A stretch of DNA of 64,000 nucleotides from Polaromonas sp. Its GTDB lineage: Bacteria; Pseudomonadota; Gammaproteobacteria; Burkholderiales; Burkholderiaceae_C. The notes under the pieces are model-generated. The model did no database searches, was not told the origin of the DNA, and saw nothing but the letters and a program-made list of their open reading frames with translations. A program made the position numbers and the translations under genes. The stretch lies in the NCBI GenBank assembly GCA_046598365.1, contig JBKJIV010000078.1:6493-70492 (forward strand), in the 5' to 3' direction. Positions 3,621 to 10,508 of this stretch are shown piece after piece; within the stretch, counting starts at the first letter, position 1; every line of letters starts with the position of its first letter.

Positions 3621-4043
3621 CTACTTCAGGGTGGCGAGGTAAGCGATCAGGTCCGCCCGCTCCTGCGCGTCGTCCACCTGAAAACCCATGCGCTGACCCA
3701 CCACCAGGTCTTCCGGATCCTGCAACCAGGCATTGAGGGTTTGCGGCGTCCAGCGCAAGCGGGACTGGGCCATCTCGTCTGAGTATTTATATCCCTTGAG
3801 ACTGCCAACGCGACGGCCCATGACACCGCGATGCGCCGGGCCAAGCTTGTTGCTGTCGACCGCATGGCAAGCCGTGCAGCGCGCGGCATATAGAGCCTGC
3901 CCTTTCAGCACATCGCCGGCAGGTGGCGTTTGCCACTCACGAGCACCGGTGTTGCTTTGCGCCAGCACGGGCCCCGCAAGCGCCAAAGTAACAAGGCCTT
4001 GAATCGTCACGCTCAATAAATGCTGGGGCACCTTAAACAACAT
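3621..4043 (-). CDS. Periplasmic class I cytochrome c (c2-like)
   Basis: Signal peptide, CTACH haem motif, GPAHRGVMGR, distal Met in GQRMGF; ATG at 4043 after AGGGAG (the track ORF is over-extended). Confidence 0.9.
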   Translation of the reverse strand: MLFKVPQHLLSVTIQGLVTLALAGPVLAQSNTGAREWQTPPAGDVLKGQALYAARCTACHAVDSNKLGPAHRGVMGRRVGSLKGYKYSDEMAQSRLRWTPQTLNAWLQDPEDLVVGQRMGFQVDDAQERADLIAYLATLK

Positions 4044-4243
4044 AGGACTCCCTGCTGGAGGACGATGAAACAGGATGGACAGATGTAACTGAAATCGCTG
4101 GAATACGGTATTGAACATTAGGCAAAGGCATGGCGTCTCCTCAGGTAAGGCCGGTTGAAGGCTTTGGATAGTGCTGGTTTTACGCAGCAAGCCCGCCTTT
4201 GGATTCGCCCAAAACCAACGAAACCGCCAGTTATTTAAAAAGT

Positions 4244-4273
4244 TGAATCCAGTGGCACCGGAATTTGCGTATT
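4244..4273 (+). promoter_or_regulatory. Putative ECF sigma promoter TGAATCC-N17-CGTATT
   Basis: Lies 60 nt upstream of the DUF3034 start; a similar motif occurs at 9548-9576. Confidence 0.55.
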
Positions 4274-4332
4274 CTGAGCGTGAACACTTTTTTACATTCC
4301 ACACCCCGCCACCACTTGAAGGATCTTCAATC

Positions 4333-5262
4333 ATGAAATTTGCACCTTCCCTGATCGCAACCTGCACGGCCCTGGTATGCGCCGGTGCCAGCCTCCCTGC
4401 CTTTGCCGAGACCGGCAAATTGCTGCTCACCGGTGGCGTGAGCAGCATCGACGGCGCCGCCGGCGGCGGTTTGACGCCGTGGGCCGTCATCGGCAGCAAC
4501 GCCACCGAAGGTGAAATTGGCGGCTCTGCCTTTGTGACCACCGCCGGCACCAAAGACTACGGTCTGAACATCGTGGGCGCCGCCATCGGCATCCACGACC
4601 GTTTTGAAATCTCGGTAGCCCAACAGGACTTCAACACGCGCGCCACGGGCACAGCCCTCGGACTGCCCGGCCTGCACCTGAAGCAGTCGATCGTCGGCTT
4701 CAAGGCCCGGGTCGCGGGAGATGCCATCCTGGACAGCGACTCCCTGATGCCTCAAATTGCAGTCGGTCTGCAATACAAGACACTGGGCTCCACCGGTCTG
4801 GATGGCACTTTACGTGCGCTGGGTGCCAAGCGTGAAGGCGTGGACCTGTATGTCAGTGCAACCAAACTCTTTTTGGGACAAAGCCTTCTGGTCAACGGCA
4901 CACTGCGCGCTACCAAAGCCAACCAGAACGGACTGCTCGGCTACGGTGCCACGCTGGGTGGCGGAAGCAACAACAGCTACAGCCTGCAGCCCGAATTTTC
5001 GGTGGCCTACCTGATCAACAAAAACATCGCAGTGGGCGCCGAATATCGCTTCATGCGCAACAAGTTAGAGACTGCTGGCCGCGCCGCAGGCCTGGGCAAC
5101 GGATTGCGCTCGGAAGACTGGAAAGACATCTTTATCGCTTGGGCACCCAACAAAAATCTCTCAGTTACCTTGGCTTATGTAGATTTGGGCGTGATTGTTC
5201 CGGCTACCACAGCAAGCCGAAAGCAAAAAGGCTACTACCTGTCAGCCCAGGTCGCTTTCTGA
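4333..5262 (+). CDS. DUF3034-family predicted outer-membrane beta-barrel protein
   Basis: Signal peptide, GKLLLTGGVSSIDGAAGGGLTPWAVIG N-terminal signature, amphipathic strands, C-terminal YLSAQVAF (terminal Phe). Confidence 0.82.
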   Translation: MKFAPSLIATCTALVCAGASLPAFAETGKLLLTGGVSSIDGAAGGGLTPWAVIGSNATEGEIGGSAFVTTAGTKDYGLNIVGAAIGIHDRFEISVAQQDFNTRATGTALGLPGLHLKQSIVGFKARVAGDAILDSDSLMPQIAVGLQYKTLGSTGLDGTLRALGAKREGVDLYVSATKLFLGQSLLVNGTLRATKANQNGLLGYGATLGGGSNNSYSLQPEFSVAYLINKNIAVGAEYRFMRNKLETAGRAAGLGNGLRSEDWKDIFIAWAPNKNLSVTLAYVDLGVIVPATTASRKQKGYYLSAQVAF

Positions 5263-5295
5263 CCCCCCTCACAAAACATCATTGAAGGAATCGAC

Positions 5296-5739
5296 ATGAA
5301 AAAAACCCTTATTTCTCTCGTACTGGCAGGTTCTGGTCTGCTGATGTCTGGCGCTTCTTTTGCGCAAATGGCGCCAAAGGATGACCAGCTTTACAAAGCC
5401 TTTGGCGAAAAAGCCGGACTCGTCACCCTGATGGACGACTTCATGGTCCGCCTGCTGGCAGACCCCCGCACCGGCCCCCACTTCAAGCCTTCCAATCAGG
5501 AACGGGTCAAGGAACAACTGGTCGACCAGTTGTGCTCGCTGGCTGGCGGCCCTTGTGTTTATAAGGGCGCTGACATGAAAAGCGCGCATGCCAATCTGGA
5601 CATTAAAAAGTCAGATTTCAACGCGCTGGTTGAAGTGCTGCAGCAAAGCATGGACGCCAAGGGTATTCCCTTCCGTACCCAAAACCAGATGCTGGCGCTG
5701 CTGGCCCCTATGCACCGCGACACCATTACGGTACGCTGA
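5296..5739 (+). CDS. Exported group I truncated haemoglobin
   Basis: LYKAFG, DPRTGPHF, AGGPCVYKG and proximal His in MKSAHANL; Sec signal peptide ending ASFA. Confidence 0.88.
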   Translation: MKKTLISLVLAGSGLLMSGASFAQMAPKDDQLYKAFGEKAGLVTLMDDFMVRLLADPRTGPHFKPSNQERVKEQLVDQLCSLAGGPCVYKGADMKSAHANLDIKKSDFNALVEVLQQSMDAKGIPFRTQNQMLALLAPMHRDTITVR

Positions 5740-5770
5740 GCCATCGCCCTACTCCACACTTGGACCTCCC

Positions 5771-6421
5771 ATGAAAAAAACGTTGCTTTCCCTGGCCCTT
5801 GGAGCCATATCCAGCTTTGCCCTCGCGGGCAATCTGCAGGTTCTGGTGCTCGACAAAGACGGCAAACCTGTACCAGATGCGGTGGTAGTGGTCGTGCCTG
5901 CGAACAAAGGCGCGCCCAAGGCCGCTCTTCCCATGCAGGTCACCATCAAGCAGGAAAAAATGCGTTTTATTCCGGCAGTCAGTGTGGTCGGGGTGGGTGC
6001 CAAAGCTTCTTTCGTCAACGACGATCCCTGGGAGCATCATGTGCGCGCCTCGGCTGCCGGGCTGGCGCAATTCAACACGTCGAGCAGTGGAGGTTTTGAG
6101 CTGCGGATCGATGGCAAACCCGAAGGCAAGCCAGGCAAGTCGGCAGATGGCGTGTTTGAAAAGGCGGGTGCGGTGCTGCTGGGTTGCCACGTTCATGGCT
6201 CCATGCGCGGCCATGTGTATGTGAGCGACTCGCCCTGGGCCATATTGACCGGCGCCGACGGAATAGCCAACCTGGAGCAGATTCCGGACGGCGCTGCGCA
6301 GATCAAAGTCTGGCATGCCGACCAACTGCTCGATATCACGCCGCAGCAGACATCCGTCAGCGCGACGCCCGGCAAGGTCACCATGCAACTGAGCGTGGTG
6401 CCTCGCCGCCGCAGGGTCTGA
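5771..6421 (+). CDS. Exported cupredoxin-domain protein ('methylamine utilization protein'-like)
   Basis: Signal peptide, NDDPWEHHV, type-1 copper loop GCHVHGSMRG, C-terminal beta-sandwich. Confidence 0.78.
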   Translation: MKKTLLSLALGAISSFALAGNLQVLVLDKDGKPVPDAVVVVVPANKGAPKAALPMQVTIKQEKMRFIPAVSVVGVGAKASFVNDDPWEHHVRASAAGLAQFNTSSSGGFELRIDGKPEGKPGKSADGVFEKAGAVLLGCHVHGSMRGHVYVSDSPWAILTGADGIANLEQIPDGAAQIKVWHADQLLDITPQQTSVSATPGKVTMQLSVVPRRRRV

Positions 6422-6502
6422 TGCGTTTTTAACGCGCAGGCTGCCGTTCTTTCATGCCGGCAGGTGGTTGTTGCAATGGCATAACTCCCTATACTCAGCC
6501 GC

Positions 6503-7129
6503 ATGAACCAGCCAGCCGGCACAGACACTGAGTCAGGCAGAGAAAGCCTCCAGGCATTGCTGCATGCGGCGGCTCAGGGTGACCACGCGTGTTTTGCCCG
6601 GATCTACGAGCGCACCCACCTGCATCTGTTTGGCTTTGCCGTTCGTATATTGGGGCAAGGACAAGCGGCCGAAGATGTGCTGCAAGAGGCTTATGTGAGC
6701 ATCTGGAAAAATGCCCCGCACTACCGCAGTGAGGTCAACGGGCAAACCATTCAACCCATGACATGGCTGATAGCCATTGTCCGCAACAAGGCGCTGGACG
6801 CCTACCGTGCGCGTGCGCGCCGCAAGGAAAGCGAACTGCCCGAGTCCGGCGATGTGGATCAAGACGAGGTGCTGACCACCACGCAAGCACTACCCAGTGC
6901 CATGCAGCTGCTGGAGCAGGCGACCCAGTCCCTGAAGATAGAGACGTGCATGAACGGGCTGGACGGCAGTCACCGCCAAAGTCTGGCACTGGCTTATTAC
7001 CAGGGTCTGTCGCACACCGAAGTTGCCGCGCAAATGGGCGCGCCACTGGGATCGGTCAAGGCCTGGATACGGCGTGGGTTGGAAAAACTCAAAACCTGTC
7101 TGGCCGCGCAGGGCGTGGTGGCGTCATGA
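6503..7129 (+). CDS. ECF RNA polymerase sigma factor (SigK-like)
   Basis: AEDVLQEAY...WLIAIVRNKALD region 2; AYYQGLSHTEVA...PLGSVKAWIRRGL region 4. Confidence 0.92.
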   Translation: MNQPAGTDTESGRESLQALLHAAAQGDHACFARIYERTHLHLFGFAVRILGQGQAAEDVLQEAYVSIWKNAPHYRSEVNGQTIQPMTWLIAIVRNKALDAYRARARRKESELPESGDVDQDEVLTTTQALPSAMQLLEQATQSLKIETCMNGLDGSHRQSLALAYYQGLSHTEVAAQMGAPLGSVKAWIRRGLEKLKTCLAAQGVVAS

Positions 7130-7860
7130 GATACACCCACCCCAACGTACTGGAACACCTGGCATCCAGCTATGTGCTGGGTACCCTGACCGGCGGCGCG
7201 CGCCGCCGCTTTGAGCGCCTGCAGCGCGACCGCGCCGATGTACGGGACGTCGTCATTCAATGGGAAACACGCCTGGGACAACTGGCGGTGTCCGTTCCGC
7301 AGCAACAACCTTCGGCCCGCTTGTGGCACGCCATCGCAGCACGTACCCGCCCTGCGGCCGCCGTGTCTGCAGGTGCTGGCTGGCTCGGCTGGTTCAGACC
7401 CGCGGGCTTCGGCTTTGGTGGGCTGGCCACTGGCGTTCTCGCCGCCAGCCTGCTGTTTGTCATGGCCCCGGGCCTGTTCACCTCCAGTGACCGGCTCGCC
7501 ATGCTTTCCGGTGAAAAGCTGCCCCAAAGTTATGTGGGCCTGCTCACCGATACACAAGGCAATGGCAAGCTGCTGGTCAGCTCGCTGCGCCATGGCAAAA
7601 CCATGACCATCAAGGTCATCGGCCCCATCACACCGCCCGCCAGCGGCAAACTGATGCTGTGGGCCGTGCCCGCAAACGGGCCGGCGTTTTCGTTGGGCAC
7701 GGTACCCACGAGCGGATCGGCTGTTTCCATGCTGCCCGACACGTCAGAAAAACTGCTGTCCAAAGTCAGCAAGCTGGTGGTCACGCTGGAAACTGACGCA
7801 AACGCAGCCAAGCCCGGCGAGACCGTTGTTTTCAGCGGCAACTGCGCCAAGTTGTGGTGA
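7126..7860 (+). CDS. Anti-sigma factor, RskA-like
   Basis: ATGA overlap with the sigma gene; LASSYVLGTL N-terminal domain, one TM helix, extracytoplasmic LWAVP...SLG...LVVTLE domain. Confidence 0.85.
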   Translation: MRYTHPNVLEHLASSYVLGTLTGGARRRFERLQRDRADVRDVVIQWETRLGQLAVSVPQQQPSARLWHAIAARTRPAAAVSAGAGWLGWFRPAGFGFGGLATGVLAASLLFVMAPGLFTSSDRLAMLSGEKLPQSYVGLLTDTQGNGKLLVSSLRHGKTMTIKVIGPITPPASGKLMLWAVPANGPAFSLGTVPTSGSAVSMLPDTSEKLLSKVSKLVVTLETDANAAKPGETVVFSGNCAKLW

Positions 7861-8057
7861 TTCGAAACATCTGCGAGTTCTGATCTGAGCGCCACGAAGG
7901 CGATGGAGAATCCAAGCTGACAAACCGCATTTTTGGCGCGGCACTCCTCGCAGGTCAGGTTCAACTTTCGTAGCGCCTTCACCAACATCAATGGTAATCT
8001 CTGCATCGAAGGCGCGGCCTCGATCACATCAGCGAATTCAACAAGGAGAAAACCAGC

Positions 8058-8963
8058 GTGAACTCAAGCCTGAAATTATTCCTCGCCGTCTCAGCCATCA
8101 TTGTCACCCTCAGCGGGTGTGCAACGTCGCCTGCTTCTGAAATCGCGCCCACCCAGCTGACCCTTGCCTGCCCTGTCTCCCGGGTCAATGTTCCTGCCGC
8201 GGACTATATCGGTCCCTATGCGGGCGTTGAAAACGTCATTCCCTTGCAACTGATGGCTCAGGATATTTATTGCTCCGACTCTGTGAAGGCCATGAAATTC
8301 CCCCGGGGCTTCGTCGCTATCTACGGCAGCTCCCGTATCAGGGAGAAAAATGCGTCCTGCGATGCGCGAGGCGAAAACTGCAACGACGCCATCAGGGCCG
8401 CAAGCGACACCATCTACGCGGACATCAGAAACTTCGCCTACGCGTGGACGGCGCGCTATGGCAAGCAGTACCCGATCATGACTGGCGCGGGCCCAGGCCT
8501 CATGGAGGCCGCAAACAAGGGCGCGAAGGAAGCGGGCGGTCCGAGCGTGGGGTACACAACGTATTACGACCGTTCGACCAGCAATGACGCCCTGAAGCCT
8601 TATGGTGGCGATCCCAAATTGGCGTTGAATCCTCATGTCACGAACGGGCTGATTTTTTCCAGTGTCTCCATTCGGGAGCTGGCCATGATCAAACATTCTG
8701 CGGCCATCGTGATCGCCCCGGGCGGAACTGGCACCGAGTGGGAAATGTTTCAAATCATCGAGATCATCAAAAGCAGGCAGCTGACCAAGGTTCCGGTGTA
8801 TCTTGTGGGCAATCGCCAAATCCACTGGCAGAGCCTGGAAGCACGTCTGAATGACATGGTTCTGCGCAAAACCATCAACAAGGACGAAGTGGCCTTCCTG
8901 AGATTTGTGGAAAGCAGCGAAGAGCTGGTTAAACAACTCAGCGCGGATATGAAACTCAACTGA
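8058..8963 (+). CDS. LOG-family (nucleotide monophosphate phosphoribohydrolase-like) lipoprotein
   Basis: YGSSR, TGAGPGLMEAANKGA and PGGTGTEWE motifs; lipobox LSGC after a hydrophobic stretch. Confidence 0.8.
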   Translation: MNSSLKLFLAVSAIIVTLSGCATSPASEIAPTQLTLACPVSRVNVPAADYIGPYAGVENVIPLQLMAQDIYCSDSVKAMKFPRGFVAIYGSSRIREKNASCDARGENCNDAIRAASDTIYADIRNFAYAWTARYGKQYPIMTGAGPGLMEAANKGAKEAGGPSVGYTTYYDRSTSNDALKPYGGDPKLALNPHVTNGLIFSSVSIRELAMIKHSAAIVIAPGGTGTEWEMFQIIEIIKSRQLTKVPVYLVGNRQIHWQSLEARLNDMVLRKTINKDEVAFLRFVESSEELVKQLSADMKLN

Positions 8964-8979
8964 TTCAACACAGGCGTAT

Positions 8980-9516
8980 GTGATGGGACTGGCCCGGGGT
9001 TTACTTGATCGGATTGTGCTGATTGGCGGCGTGCTTTGCGGCGGCATGACACCGAGCTTCATGGCGCAATACCGCCAGCGCGTGGGTGGACAGCTCAGTC
9101 AAGTCGTGCAGGACCTCGCGCCGTTTCAACAGATTGCCAACCTGCGACACAAGGGCAGCCTGGATGCTCTAGTTGCGCACCATCTCAATAGCAGCGACGC
9201 TACTTTTCAGGCTGAAGGCGCGGCCATCCAGGCCATGATGGACGCAGCGCTGCGGCTCAAGGAGGCTTTTGAGGGGTTGAATGGCAGCCTGACCCAGCAA
9301 ATCGGGTACTTGCTCCAGCATGCCGACCCCGCGGTGCTTCGGGCGACCTGGTCTATCTATCAACCCTCTTTTTTGCTCACGGTCGACGGGCTGATCTTTG
9401 CCATTTCTTTCGGACTCATCATCTGGCTGGCGTTTCTGGGGCTGTGGATGTTGGGGTCTGCCCTTGCTTCACGCGGTCGCGCTGGGGGGCATTCCCGAAG
9501 CCGCCGCGCTCTTTAA
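8980..9516 (+). CDS. DUF2937-like membrane protein
   Basis: N- and C-terminal TM segments; PSFMAQYRQRVGG motif. Confidence 0.65.
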   Translation: MMGLARGLLDRIVLIGGVLCGGMTPSFMAQYRQRVGGQLSQVVQDLAPFQQIANLRHKGSLDALVAHHLNSSDATFQAEGAAIQAMMDAALRLKEAFEGLNGSLTQQIGYLLQHADPAVLRATWSIYQPSFLLTVDGLIFAISFGLIIWLAFLGLWMLGSALASRGRAGGHSRSRRAL

Positions 9517-9547
9517 TCTTCAAGCTCGCAAATAAATATCCGCGAAT

Positions 9548-9576
9548 TGCATCCGTTTTCGTCGTCACCGCGTTTA
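9548..9576 (+). promoter_or_regulatory. Putative ECF sigma promoter TGCATCC-N16-CGTTTA
   Basis: Upstream of the TPR gene; matches the motif at 4244-4273. Confidence 0.5.
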
Positions 9577-9630
9577 TCTAAGGTGCTGACTTGCAGCGCA
9601 TCTACGTTACCCATTATTCAAGGAGCCCCC

Positions 9631-10101
9631 ATGAACACTTTTTCCATCCGCAACCTCGTCGCCCTGCCCATCCTGGGTCTGGCTATGGCCGGCGCCGTGC
9701 TTGCCGCCGATTTTCAGTCGACGCCAATGGAGAACGCGCGCATAGATGATTTCGCCGCCGGTCAAAAGGCGCTCGCAGCCAAAAACTGGTCTGAGGCCGC
9801 CAGCAGCTTCAGCAAGGTAGTTGCCAAAAATCCGAAAAACGCCGACGCCTATAACTACCTTGGTTATTCCAACCGCTGGCTGGGTAAATATGACGAAGCC
9901 TTTGCGGCATATAACAAAGCCCTGACGCTGGACCCTAAACACAAAGGCGCGCTGGAATACTCAGGCATCGCTTACCTGAAAACCGGCCAGAAAGCACAAG
10001 CCGAAGCCCAACTGGCCAAACTGCAGGCGATCTGCGCCACATGTGAGGAAACCACAGACCTTGCAAAAGCCGTCGCAGACTTCAAACCAGCGGCCAAGTA
10101 A
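9631..10101 (+). CDS. Exported tetratricopeptide repeat protein with C-terminal CxxC
   Basis: Signal peptide, TPRs (PKNADAYNYLG, ALTLDPKHKGA), ICATCEE; AGGAG RBS. Confidence 0.85.
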   Translation: MNTFSIRNLVALPILGLAMAGAVLAADFQSTPMENARIDDFAAGQKALAAKNWSEAASSFSKVVAKNPKNADAYNYLGYSNRWLGKYDEAFAAYNKALTLDPKHKGALEYSGIAYLKTGQKAQAEAQLAKLQAICATCEETTDLAKAVADFKPAAK

Positions 10102-10208: not shown

Positions 10209-10508
10209 ATGTCGGACCCTTTCTCACCCCAGCCGCGCCACATCTCACTGGCGCAATTCGAGCGCTTGAAAAACTGGCGCGTTGCTCACCACGCGGCTCA
10301 ACCGGCGGAATGCTATGTGTGGGAAGCGGTGTTGACGCTCTGGATGATGGGCTGGGTGGGTTGGTTGCCAGCTTTTGCGTTTGATGCGCCTTGGGCCTAT
10401 CCGCTGTGCCTTCTGGGCATGTGGATGCCCCTGCTCTACGTGCGCATGCGGGCACGTGCCCACGCGACAAAGCGTCTCAGGTGCGACTGGCTGGATCTGG
10501 TGACCTGA
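10209..10508 (+). CDS. Small Trp-rich hypothetical membrane protein
   Basis: GGAGG RBS, two hydrophobic segments, C-terminal RLRCDWL. Confidence 0.65.
   Translation: MSDPFSPQPRHISLAQFERLKNWRVAHHAAQPAECYVWEAVLTLWMMGWVGWLPAFAFDAPWAYPLCLLGMWMPLLYVRMRARAHATKRLRCDWLDLVT

Follow-up and report, generated by a model that had tools for sequence, protein, structure and literature searches.

A predicted DUF3034 barrel, an exported truncated globin and a cupredoxin form an apparently undescribed envelope module, likely under ECF18 control in Polaromonas

Sigma factors of the extracytoplasmic function (ECF) group ECF18 carry two cysteines in region sigma4 (PMC7509140), have a single-helix, RskA-like anti-sigma factor encoded at position +1, and use promoters of the type TGCATC (−35)/CGTA (−10) (PMC7826278, supplement; consensus also in PMC13492112, Table 4). 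The SigK–RskA pair of Mycobacterium tuberculosis is related to these systems. Here, we describe a locus in a 64,000-nt stretch of DNA from Polaromonas sp. (contig JBKJIV010000078.1; "the window" denotes this whole stretch), in which an ECF18-type pair directly follows genes for a DUF3034 protein predicted to be an outer-membrane barrel, an exported truncated globin and an exported cupredoxin (Table 1). As in RpoT of Pseudomonas putida, LitS of Burkholderia multivorans and RpoP of Cupriavidus metallidurans, the sigma4 cysteines are 50 residues apart and RskA is at +1, and the context genes of the ECF18 group (fasciclin, DUF3455, DUF4331 and cyclopropane synthase) are like those found with the motif in the host and in related genomes. 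In contrast, DUF3034, the globin and the cupredoxin are not among the conserved context genes given in the ECF18 section of the group description (PMC7826278, supplement). The module formed by these three genes is real, widespread and apparently undescribed: the barrel–globin–cupredoxin assembly appears to be new, whereas its ECF18 regulation is of a known kind.

Other described systems resemble single parts of the module. The globin HbN of Shewanella benthica (SbHbN; PDB 8UGZ and 7TT9) shares with the module's globin the 2/2 fold, His F8, apolar residues at B10, E7, E11 and G8, Cys E16 and an assembly face on helices G and H (PMC11904497), which in the module is predicted; the module's globin differs in being exported, in an invariant second cysteine seven residues on, in Phe CD1 (Tyr in SbHbN), and in having a predicted barrel partner instead of forming a homodimer. 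The FapF secretion channel and the COG4313 channel (Pput2725) are like the DUF3034 model, at the level of the model only, in having 12 strands and an N-terminal plug, but they are 8–12% identical to it, give no profile match and stand in another gene context. Porin–cytochrome conduits (Cyc2–rusticyanin–Cyc1, MtrAB) join a barrel to a haem protein, sometimes by fusion, near a blue-copper protein and a class I cytochrome c. The present module would likewise have an outer-membrane barrel holding a haem protein, with a blue-copper neighbor, but its globin is predicted to be on the periplasmic side, its barrel is predicted to be 12-stranded and plugged, none of 59 barrel sequences has the c-type haem motif CxxCH, and nothing points to a surface-exposed haem. 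The predicted barrel–globin complex thus parallels the porin–cytochrome complexes, but with a ligand-binding haem. In the YfiBNR relay, an outer-membrane component, a periplasmic mediator and an inner-membrane GGDEF-family enzyme connect the envelope to cyclic di-GMP (c-di-GMP). One form of the module has the same three-layer layout; however, its proteins are different, it carries haem and copper motifs, and the GGDEF enzyme is absent from the window. Finally, the FroR/FroI sigma/anti-sigma pair of Pseudomonas aeruginosa is required for msrPQ induction under hypochlorous acid (PMC12139993); the link to msrPQ is what it shares with the host's predicted regulon, and no barrel, globin or cupredoxin is described with it.

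We found no description of the trio, the module or DUF3034 function in the open full-text literature (subscription journals and most supplements were outside the search), in agreement with the initial annotation, which had called the trio uncharacterized. The name DUF3034 appears in papers on retrons and on Streptomyces, and the literature searched gave no precedent for a globin docked on an outer-membrane barrel. The module suggests roles that experiments can address, both for DUF3034, whose function has been obscure, and for exported members of a globin clade that has one studied member by its authors' account (PMC11904497). It may also help to find the stimuli of ECF18/RskA systems.

DUF3034 was present in 42 of 401 genomes from the phylum, 65 of 201 from the host's family and 16 of 41 close relatives. 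The flanks of 113 DUF3034 loci were fetched and mapped with profiles built from the loci themselves; several were cut by contig ends. (Left out were one locus with a frameshifted DUF3034, L059, one without DUF3034 by profile, L072, and 20 cupredoxin-centered loci, L074–L093; L040, which has two modules, was counted once by its first copy.) In 111 of the 113 loci, a globin gene was no more than 1.2 kb from the DUF3034 gene, and contig ends account for the two misses; the clustering is therefore far above chance. A cupredoxin gene was found within 6.5 kb in 81 loci. The trio is thus a conserved unit, as the initial annotation had suggested, with the barrel and the globin as its core and the cupredoxin as a mobile third member. 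Across the same loci, RskA was present in 17, cytochrome c in 24, a ferritin-like gene in 8, the TPR gene in 7 and DUF3455 in 6.

The trio is connected in two ways. A gene encoding a dCache_3–HAMP–GGDEF–EAL protein, with intact EAL motifs and an often degenerate GGDEF domain (the sensor enzyme, a presumed c-di-GMP phosphodiesterase, PDE), was present in 40 of the 113 loci. Outside the host's family it accompanied the module in 30 of 34 loci, matching the frequent GGDEF/EAL neighbor named in the initial annotation, while sigma, RskA and cytochrome c occurred in none of the 34. Within the family, RskA and cytochrome c were each found in 12 of 65 loci, and in the genus in 5 and 12 of 14, respectively, so that the proposed inclusion of cytochrome c and the ECF pair in the module is supported only in part, neither being a universal member. 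The 80 closest loci in GTDB, a sample that partly overlaps the first, contained globin in 76, cupredoxin in 48, RskA in 35, cytochrome c in 24, a ferritin-like gene in 19 and the sensor enzyme in 1, with the gene order variously shuffled. A strict ECF18 promoter motif preceded DUF3034 in 45 of the 113 loci and the sensor enzyme lay within 4.6 kb in 39, with no locus having both; relaxing the motif gave 50 and 40, again with no overlap. In a FastTree phylogeny of DUF3034, motif and sensor-enzyme states alternate across several branches, none of which holds both. L040 carries the two module types in tandem. By its motif and gene content, the window is the ECF18 form. As noted before, it has no GGDEF/EAL gene at the locus, and a profile of the sensor's periplasmic part found no match in the host genome, which is 83% complete.

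The globin's best solved matches are group I HbN proteins. His F8, Phe CD1 and Met F4 are invariant in all 53 aligned rows, as is a C-x6-C cysteine pair (seven residues apart) that probably forms a disulfide in the periplasm. Residue B10 is Leu, Val, Met or Ile in 51 of the 53 rows, and E7 and E11 are apolar in all; in the window's copy, B10, E7, E11 and G8 are Met, Val, Leu and Leu, hydrophobic throughout. This pocket pattern, together with His F8 and the HbN matches, fits subgroup 2 of group I. Tyr B10, expected of a classical NO dioxygenase pocket, occurs in none of the 53 rows, and such a pocket was rejected. Apolar pockets of this type, without Tyr B10/Gln E11, have been linked to low O2 affinity and O2 transport (PMC11904497). 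The window's globin has a signal peptide, and 20 of 29 copies from PDE-type loci show a lipobox-like sequence by a rough pattern. Exported proteins with two to four tandem globin domains of the module type (P0121–P0141, some named from Acidobacteria) were also seen, and in P0149 and two others such a globin is fused to PF11578.

Complex prediction, which covered the barrel–globin pair only and carried the haem unscored, gave a score of 0.85 in three runs and 0.00 for three controls, one of them with a swapped barrel. Contact agreement between the runs was at least 96% and the pLDDT of the partners at least 92. (In the calibration of such scores, which is only rough here, 116 of 157 solved complexes attained the mark, but so did 2 of 215 mismatches.) The prediction, suggested as a check when the locus was first annotated, places the globin on the periplasmic face of the barrel. 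On the barrel side, contacts are made by residues 33–36, 64, 105–112, 156–159 and 202–205, which lie on the N-terminus and on turns that are periplasmic by the strand order of the model; on the globin side, they are on helices G and H and include N107, A114 and P115 (mature numbering) and E90, each conserved at 91–96%. The long ligand tunnel of SbHbN begins at the GH turn (PMC11904497), which by analogy would be beside the predicted interface; this is suggestive only. Natural fusions of the globin to DUF3034 occur in L038 and P0142, and in P0135 two globins of the module type are fused to the cupredoxin.

The AlphaFold2 model of DUF3034 is a 12-stranded barrel (pLDDT 78.8, pTM 0.80), consistent with a predicted outer-membrane β-barrel with a Gly-rich N-terminal plug, although the N-terminal segment of about 36 residues, including residues 1–22, was poorly predicted when the protein was modeled alone. 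The best named homologs of the barrel come from Polaromonas. The C-terminal residue is aromatic in 55 of 59 aligned rows. The closest solved folds are FapF (Z 19.4, rmsd 3.8, 231 aligned), KdgM (Z 17.8), the COG4313 channel (Z 17.3, rmsd 3.8, 229 aligned) and NanC (Z 17.2), whereas the DUF3034 profile found no sequence match among solved structures at E up to 1, a result that leaves room for remote homology. Plug residues T8, G10, G16, G19 and G21 and alternating polar residues of the strands are highly conserved, which hints at a barrel that passes polar species. The earlier proposal had an oxidant or gas entering through the barrel. Since gases need no porin, the gas part of it is not favored; a role in docking, or as a channel for polar species, suits the barrel better. 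A query of the Atlas with a close DUF3034 homolog returned DUF3034 clusters only, and no longer forms of 575–2000 residues turned up, which is weak evidence.

The third protein scored below the cut-off against the Pfam copper-binding family (E 0.007), but its profile matches amicyanin, pseudoazurin and plastocyanin, and the ligand set His...Cys-x2-His-x2-Met is invariant in 45 of 45 aligned homologs. In the model (pLDDT 91.2; plastocyanin Z 11.7, rmsd 2.4, 90 aligned), the cupredoxin domain is an insert in a transthyretin-like domain. It is thus likely a type-1 (blue) copper protein, with predicted copper binding. NCBI names it "methylamine utilization protein"; such a role, for which the name is the basis, was not favored. 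No methylamine dehydrogenase gene was identified among the open reading frames of the locus. (A PF02975 search of the 83%-complete host genome gave no match, but no positive control matched either.) In a tree from a quick search, the window's copy falls in a 43-member branch (SH-aLRT 99, this order) that has no PDE neighbor, and the trio has therefore been kept without the c-di-GMP enzyme; some genomes of this branch retain a second cupredoxin beside the sensor enzyme. At three of the cupredoxin-centered loci (L082:6718-7968, L084:6428-7678 and L089:6377-7603), the cupredoxin-family copy is adjacent to an exported protein of about 410 residues without a Pfam match, which looks like a different outer-membrane barrel (the L084 and L089 copies are 32% identical); such loci are possibly a sister module without globin.

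The sigma factor likely belongs to ECF18, judging from its sigma4 cysteines (invariant in 8 of 8 aligned sequences), its RskA neighbor (PF10099 above the cut-off, with a hydropathy peak matching the predicted helix) and the promoter motif of the span, TG[AC]ATCC-16/17-CGTA, which agrees with the ECF18 consensus at the motif level only. Because a matching motif precedes DUF3034, the adjacent pair is the likely regulator of the module, as the initial annotation had supposed of the ECF sigma. The divergent pair of promoters in front of the barrel and cytochrome c genes recurs in relatives. Genome-wide, the strict motif had 12 sites in the host, against 0–8 for permuted controls and 0–4 for other spacings. 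The targets were DUF3034, msrPQ, glutathione peroxidase, fasciclin, a DUF3455 cluster, an esterase, DUF1365 and further ECF18 sigma factors. A complete genome of the genus had 12 sites against 1 in the control and shared nine of the host's targets, including cytochrome c. Two other family genomes had 9 and 6 sites against 1 control each; both sets included DUF3034 and DUF3455, to which one genome added a ferritin-like gene and a peroxidase and the second genome DUF4331. DUF3455 was preceded by the motif in all four genomes checked.

Our tentative reading, to which we give a little less than an even chance, is that the trio is an envelope redox or protective unit under the adjacent ECF18 sigma factor. 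The barrel would keep the globin docked at the periplasmic surface of the outer membrane, where its haem would capture a small reactive ligand and the cupredoxin would reset the haem. The ligand would most likely be nitric oxide (NO) or a related oxidant, because nothing in the pocket could stabilize bound O2 by donating a hydrogen bond; cytochrome c' provides an analogy. In this lineage, cytochrome c would be the link to the respiratory chain. Since the operon ends with the sigma and anti-sigma genes, its promoter would create a positive feedback loop. The unit would then belong, together with MsrPQ and glutathione peroxidase, to the outputs of a regulon that answers oxidative damage in the envelope. 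A protective activity is the simplest reading, because the trio was kept after loss of the c-di-GMP enzyme and shares its promoter with repair and antioxidant genes. In this scheme, the loading of the cofactors, the identity of the ligand, the transfer of electrons and the dependence on the sigma factor are inferences. The three-cofactor relay envisaged at the outset is not borne out as a fixed arrangement: the trio is conserved, but cytochrome c is not a universal member and often stands with a ferritin-like gene.

Several observations weigh against this reading. The ligand cannot be read from sequence, and an apolar pocket that lacks Tyr B10/Gln E11 is not what a classical NO dioxygenase or peroxidase would lead one to expect. 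The strict motif and the PDE are both missing from 29 of the 113 loci, and 32 have no nearby cupredoxin. The docking face on helices G and H is the homodimer face of SbHbN, which AlphaFold docks readily, so that part of what is predicted may be a generic contact, against which stands the score of 0.00 for the control with a swapped barrel; the contact residues of the barrel are conserved no more than the protein's average. The two globin–DUF3034 fusions resemble each other and may represent one event, while the globin–cupredoxin fusion is a single sequence. The 12 host sites stand against 0–8 in permuted controls; some of them, such as one inside fdhD, probably arose by chance, and msrP and a peroxidase were not both among the motif sites in either of the two other family genomes. 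The host also encodes other ECF18 sigma factors, any of which might recognize these promoters in place of the adjacent one.

A possible but rather doubtful alternative, which is compatible with a protective unit, is that the trio acts as a sensory antenna: the docked globin would detect a gas or oxidant, and the cupredoxin would relay the redox state to a receiver in the inner membrane, which would be the dCache domain of the c-di-GMP enzyme in most proteobacteria and the periplasmic domain of RskA here. The apolar pocket would suit a sensor. The cupredoxin keeps to the receiver: where copies were fetched from places without a DUF3034 gene, 12 of the 20 lie directly before the sensor enzyme, and in L046 and L221 it is on the sigma–anti-sigma side, separate from the barrel and globin. 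Among PDE-free family loci, cupredoxin was present in 11 of 12 with RskA and 19 of 43 without, and among 45 full-length loci of the second sample in 22 of 24 with and 8 of 21 without, but relatives are not independent and the two samples overlap. RskA, however, is adjacent in just 17 of the 113 loci, and most promoter-type loci do without it. ECF18 pairs commonly adjoin their targets, such as fasciclin and DUF3455 (PMC7826278, supplement), and the adjacency of sigma and trio is thereby explained without signaling. Moreover, two different ECF18 subtypes, about 37–41% identical to the window's sigma factor, occupy the same position elsewhere, and dCache and RskA_C are different Pfam families, so that one cupredoxin surface would need two receivers, though the cupredoxin branches do differ. 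In its fullest version, an envelope sensor with interchangeable receivers, the barrel-held globin and the cupredoxin would signal to a c-di-GMP phosphodiesterase in most proteobacteria or to RskA in Burkholderiales; we consider this version unlikely, but if true, it would give ECF18 anti-sigma factors a defined input. The promoter motif, the predicted interface residues and the two wirings make direct experiments easy.

We think it improbable that the barrel, like its fold relatives, moves a particular organic compound or metal complex in or out, with the globin and cupredoxin receiving or oxidizing the cargo. The nearest folds are indeed the FapF secretion channel, the KdgM/NanC porins and the COG4313 channel, and the conservation of the plug and the polar strand residues exceeds what a passive anchor would need. 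Nevertheless, the surroundings of the loci contain no conserved gene for a transporter, for catabolism or for an amyloid subunit. A common fold does not show function, and no sequence relative was found among solved structures. Capture or buffering of O2 at the outer membrane, or a small respiratory electron branch of globin, cupredoxin and cytochrome c with no role in stress, has a marginally slimmer chance still. Apolar residues at B10, E7 and E11 have been linked to low O2 affinity for transport or storage (PMC11904497), and periplasmic globin–cytochrome fusions of cable bacteria have been proposed as terminal oxidases (PMC11976967), but the genes that share the promoter are for repair and antioxidant functions, not respiratory ones, and cytochrome c is missing from all loci outside the family. 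Chance assembly of unrelated exported proteins does apply to the LOG-like gene and to DUF2937, and for the most part to the TPR gene, but as an account of the cluster it is scarcely credible, and for the core trio it is refuted by the globin adjacency, the fusions, the common promoter motif and the complex prediction.

All of the genes named in the initial annotation were found at the locus, including the ATGA-coupled SigK/RskA-like pair, which overlaps at 7126–7129. The cytochrome c and DUF3034 genes are divergent, with 289 nt between them. From the barrel to the sigma gene, the gaps are 33, 31 and 81 nt, the sigma start lying 81 nt past the cupredoxin stop, and the sigma and anti-sigma genes overlap; the five genes are therefore expected to form one operon, as judged by these distances. 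Scans of the locus for sigma-70 promoters and terminators were no better than chance, and a search for RNA data listed no run covering it.

Table 1. Features of the locus (positions in the window).
Feature	Position	Strand	Remarks
Cytochrome c	3621..4043	-	class I, 140 aa, signal peptide, CTACH, Met119, PF00034; co-regulated accessory
Predicted ECF18 promoter of cytochrome c	4181..4207	-	CGAATCC-16 nt-CGTA; motif match
Predicted ECF18 promoter of barrel operon	4244..4271	+	TGAATCC-17 nt-CGTA; motif match
DUF3034	4333..5262	+	PF11231 at 1e-95, C-terminus ...AQVAF; core
Exported group-I truncated globin	5296..5739	+	PF01152, apolar distal pocket, C-x6-C; core
Exported type-1 cupredoxin (likely)	5771..6421	+	H89/C139/H142/M145 (full-length numbering); core, looser linkage
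ECF18-type sigma factor (likely)	6503..7129	+	sigma4 cysteine pair C149/C199
RskA-type anti-sigma	7126..7860	+	PF10099, one predicted transmembrane helix near residues 95-119
LOG/SLOG-family lipoprotein	8058..8963	+	PF03641; passenger
DUF2937 membrane protein	8980..9516	+	PF11157; passenger
Variant ECF18-like promoter of TPR gene	9548..9574	+	TGCATCC-16 nt-CGTT; motif match
Exported TPR protein, C-terminal CxxC (CATC)	9631..10101	+	nearly genus-limited accessory

The cytochrome c motifs are kept in 11 of 11 homologs from the genus, and none of the 24 loci with this gene near DUF3034 is of the PDE type. As a universal member of the module, cytochrome c was rejected on its absence outside the family. 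In 13 of its 24 loci in the 80-locus sample, its companion was a ferritin-like gene instead; that gene was not found in the incomplete host genome. An exported ferritin-like protein (PF13668) accompanies the module's cytochrome c, with an ECF18 motif, in L104, L114, L127, L130, L145 and 13 of the loci L195–L274; the ferritin-like protein may be a di-iron peroxidase of the periplasm to which the cytochrome donates electrons. The CxxC TPR protein reported downstream is present, with the sequence CATC, but at 7 of 113 loci and almost limited to the genus it was rejected as a core part. The CxxC is found in six of the seven copies examined, the seventh being cut by a contig end, and a site similar to the variant promoter precedes TPR homologs in L060, L063, L066 and L162. 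Cytochrome c and the TPR protein are likely lineage-limited, co-regulated extras.

Two genes inside the span had gone unmentioned. The LOG-like gene and the DUF2937 gene were tried as parts of the module and rejected, being present in 0 and 1, respectively, of the 56 loci first fetched. The LOG/SLOG-family protein has an apparent lipoprotein signal and extra cysteines, which is unusual for a family known as cytoplasmic.

Further ECF18 elements were seen elsewhere in the host genome. A second sigma–RskA copy (69%/78% identical) is followed by a variant promoter and a shortened TPR gene (L162:19-1800, G000:C146), and a third, broken copy is behind a divergent promoter pair (L160:2150-2990, G000:C206); the sigma–RskA–TPR unit is thus duplicated separately from the trio. 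A more distant ECF18 pair (L157:2483-3972, G000:C126; sigma 38% identical) has its own upstream motif and is of the sigma subtype that adjoins the trio in L048 and L069. Three tandem DUF3455 genes follow an ECF18 motif in L153:1351-4064 (G000:C38). Another cluster (L161:266-6212, G000:C208) encodes amine-oxidase-like, DUF1365, cyclopropane synthase, chalcone-isomerase-like and DUF3833 proteins. An ECF18 motif lies some 200 nt upstream of its DUF1365 gene, an arrangement also present in G550. The cluster resembles lipid-modifying clusters induced by light or singlet oxygen. Genes like those of this cluster are controlled by LitS (PMC7826278, supplement). On the 3' side of the locus, a small membrane protein without a Pfam match (window positions 10209-10508) is kept in several members of the genus.

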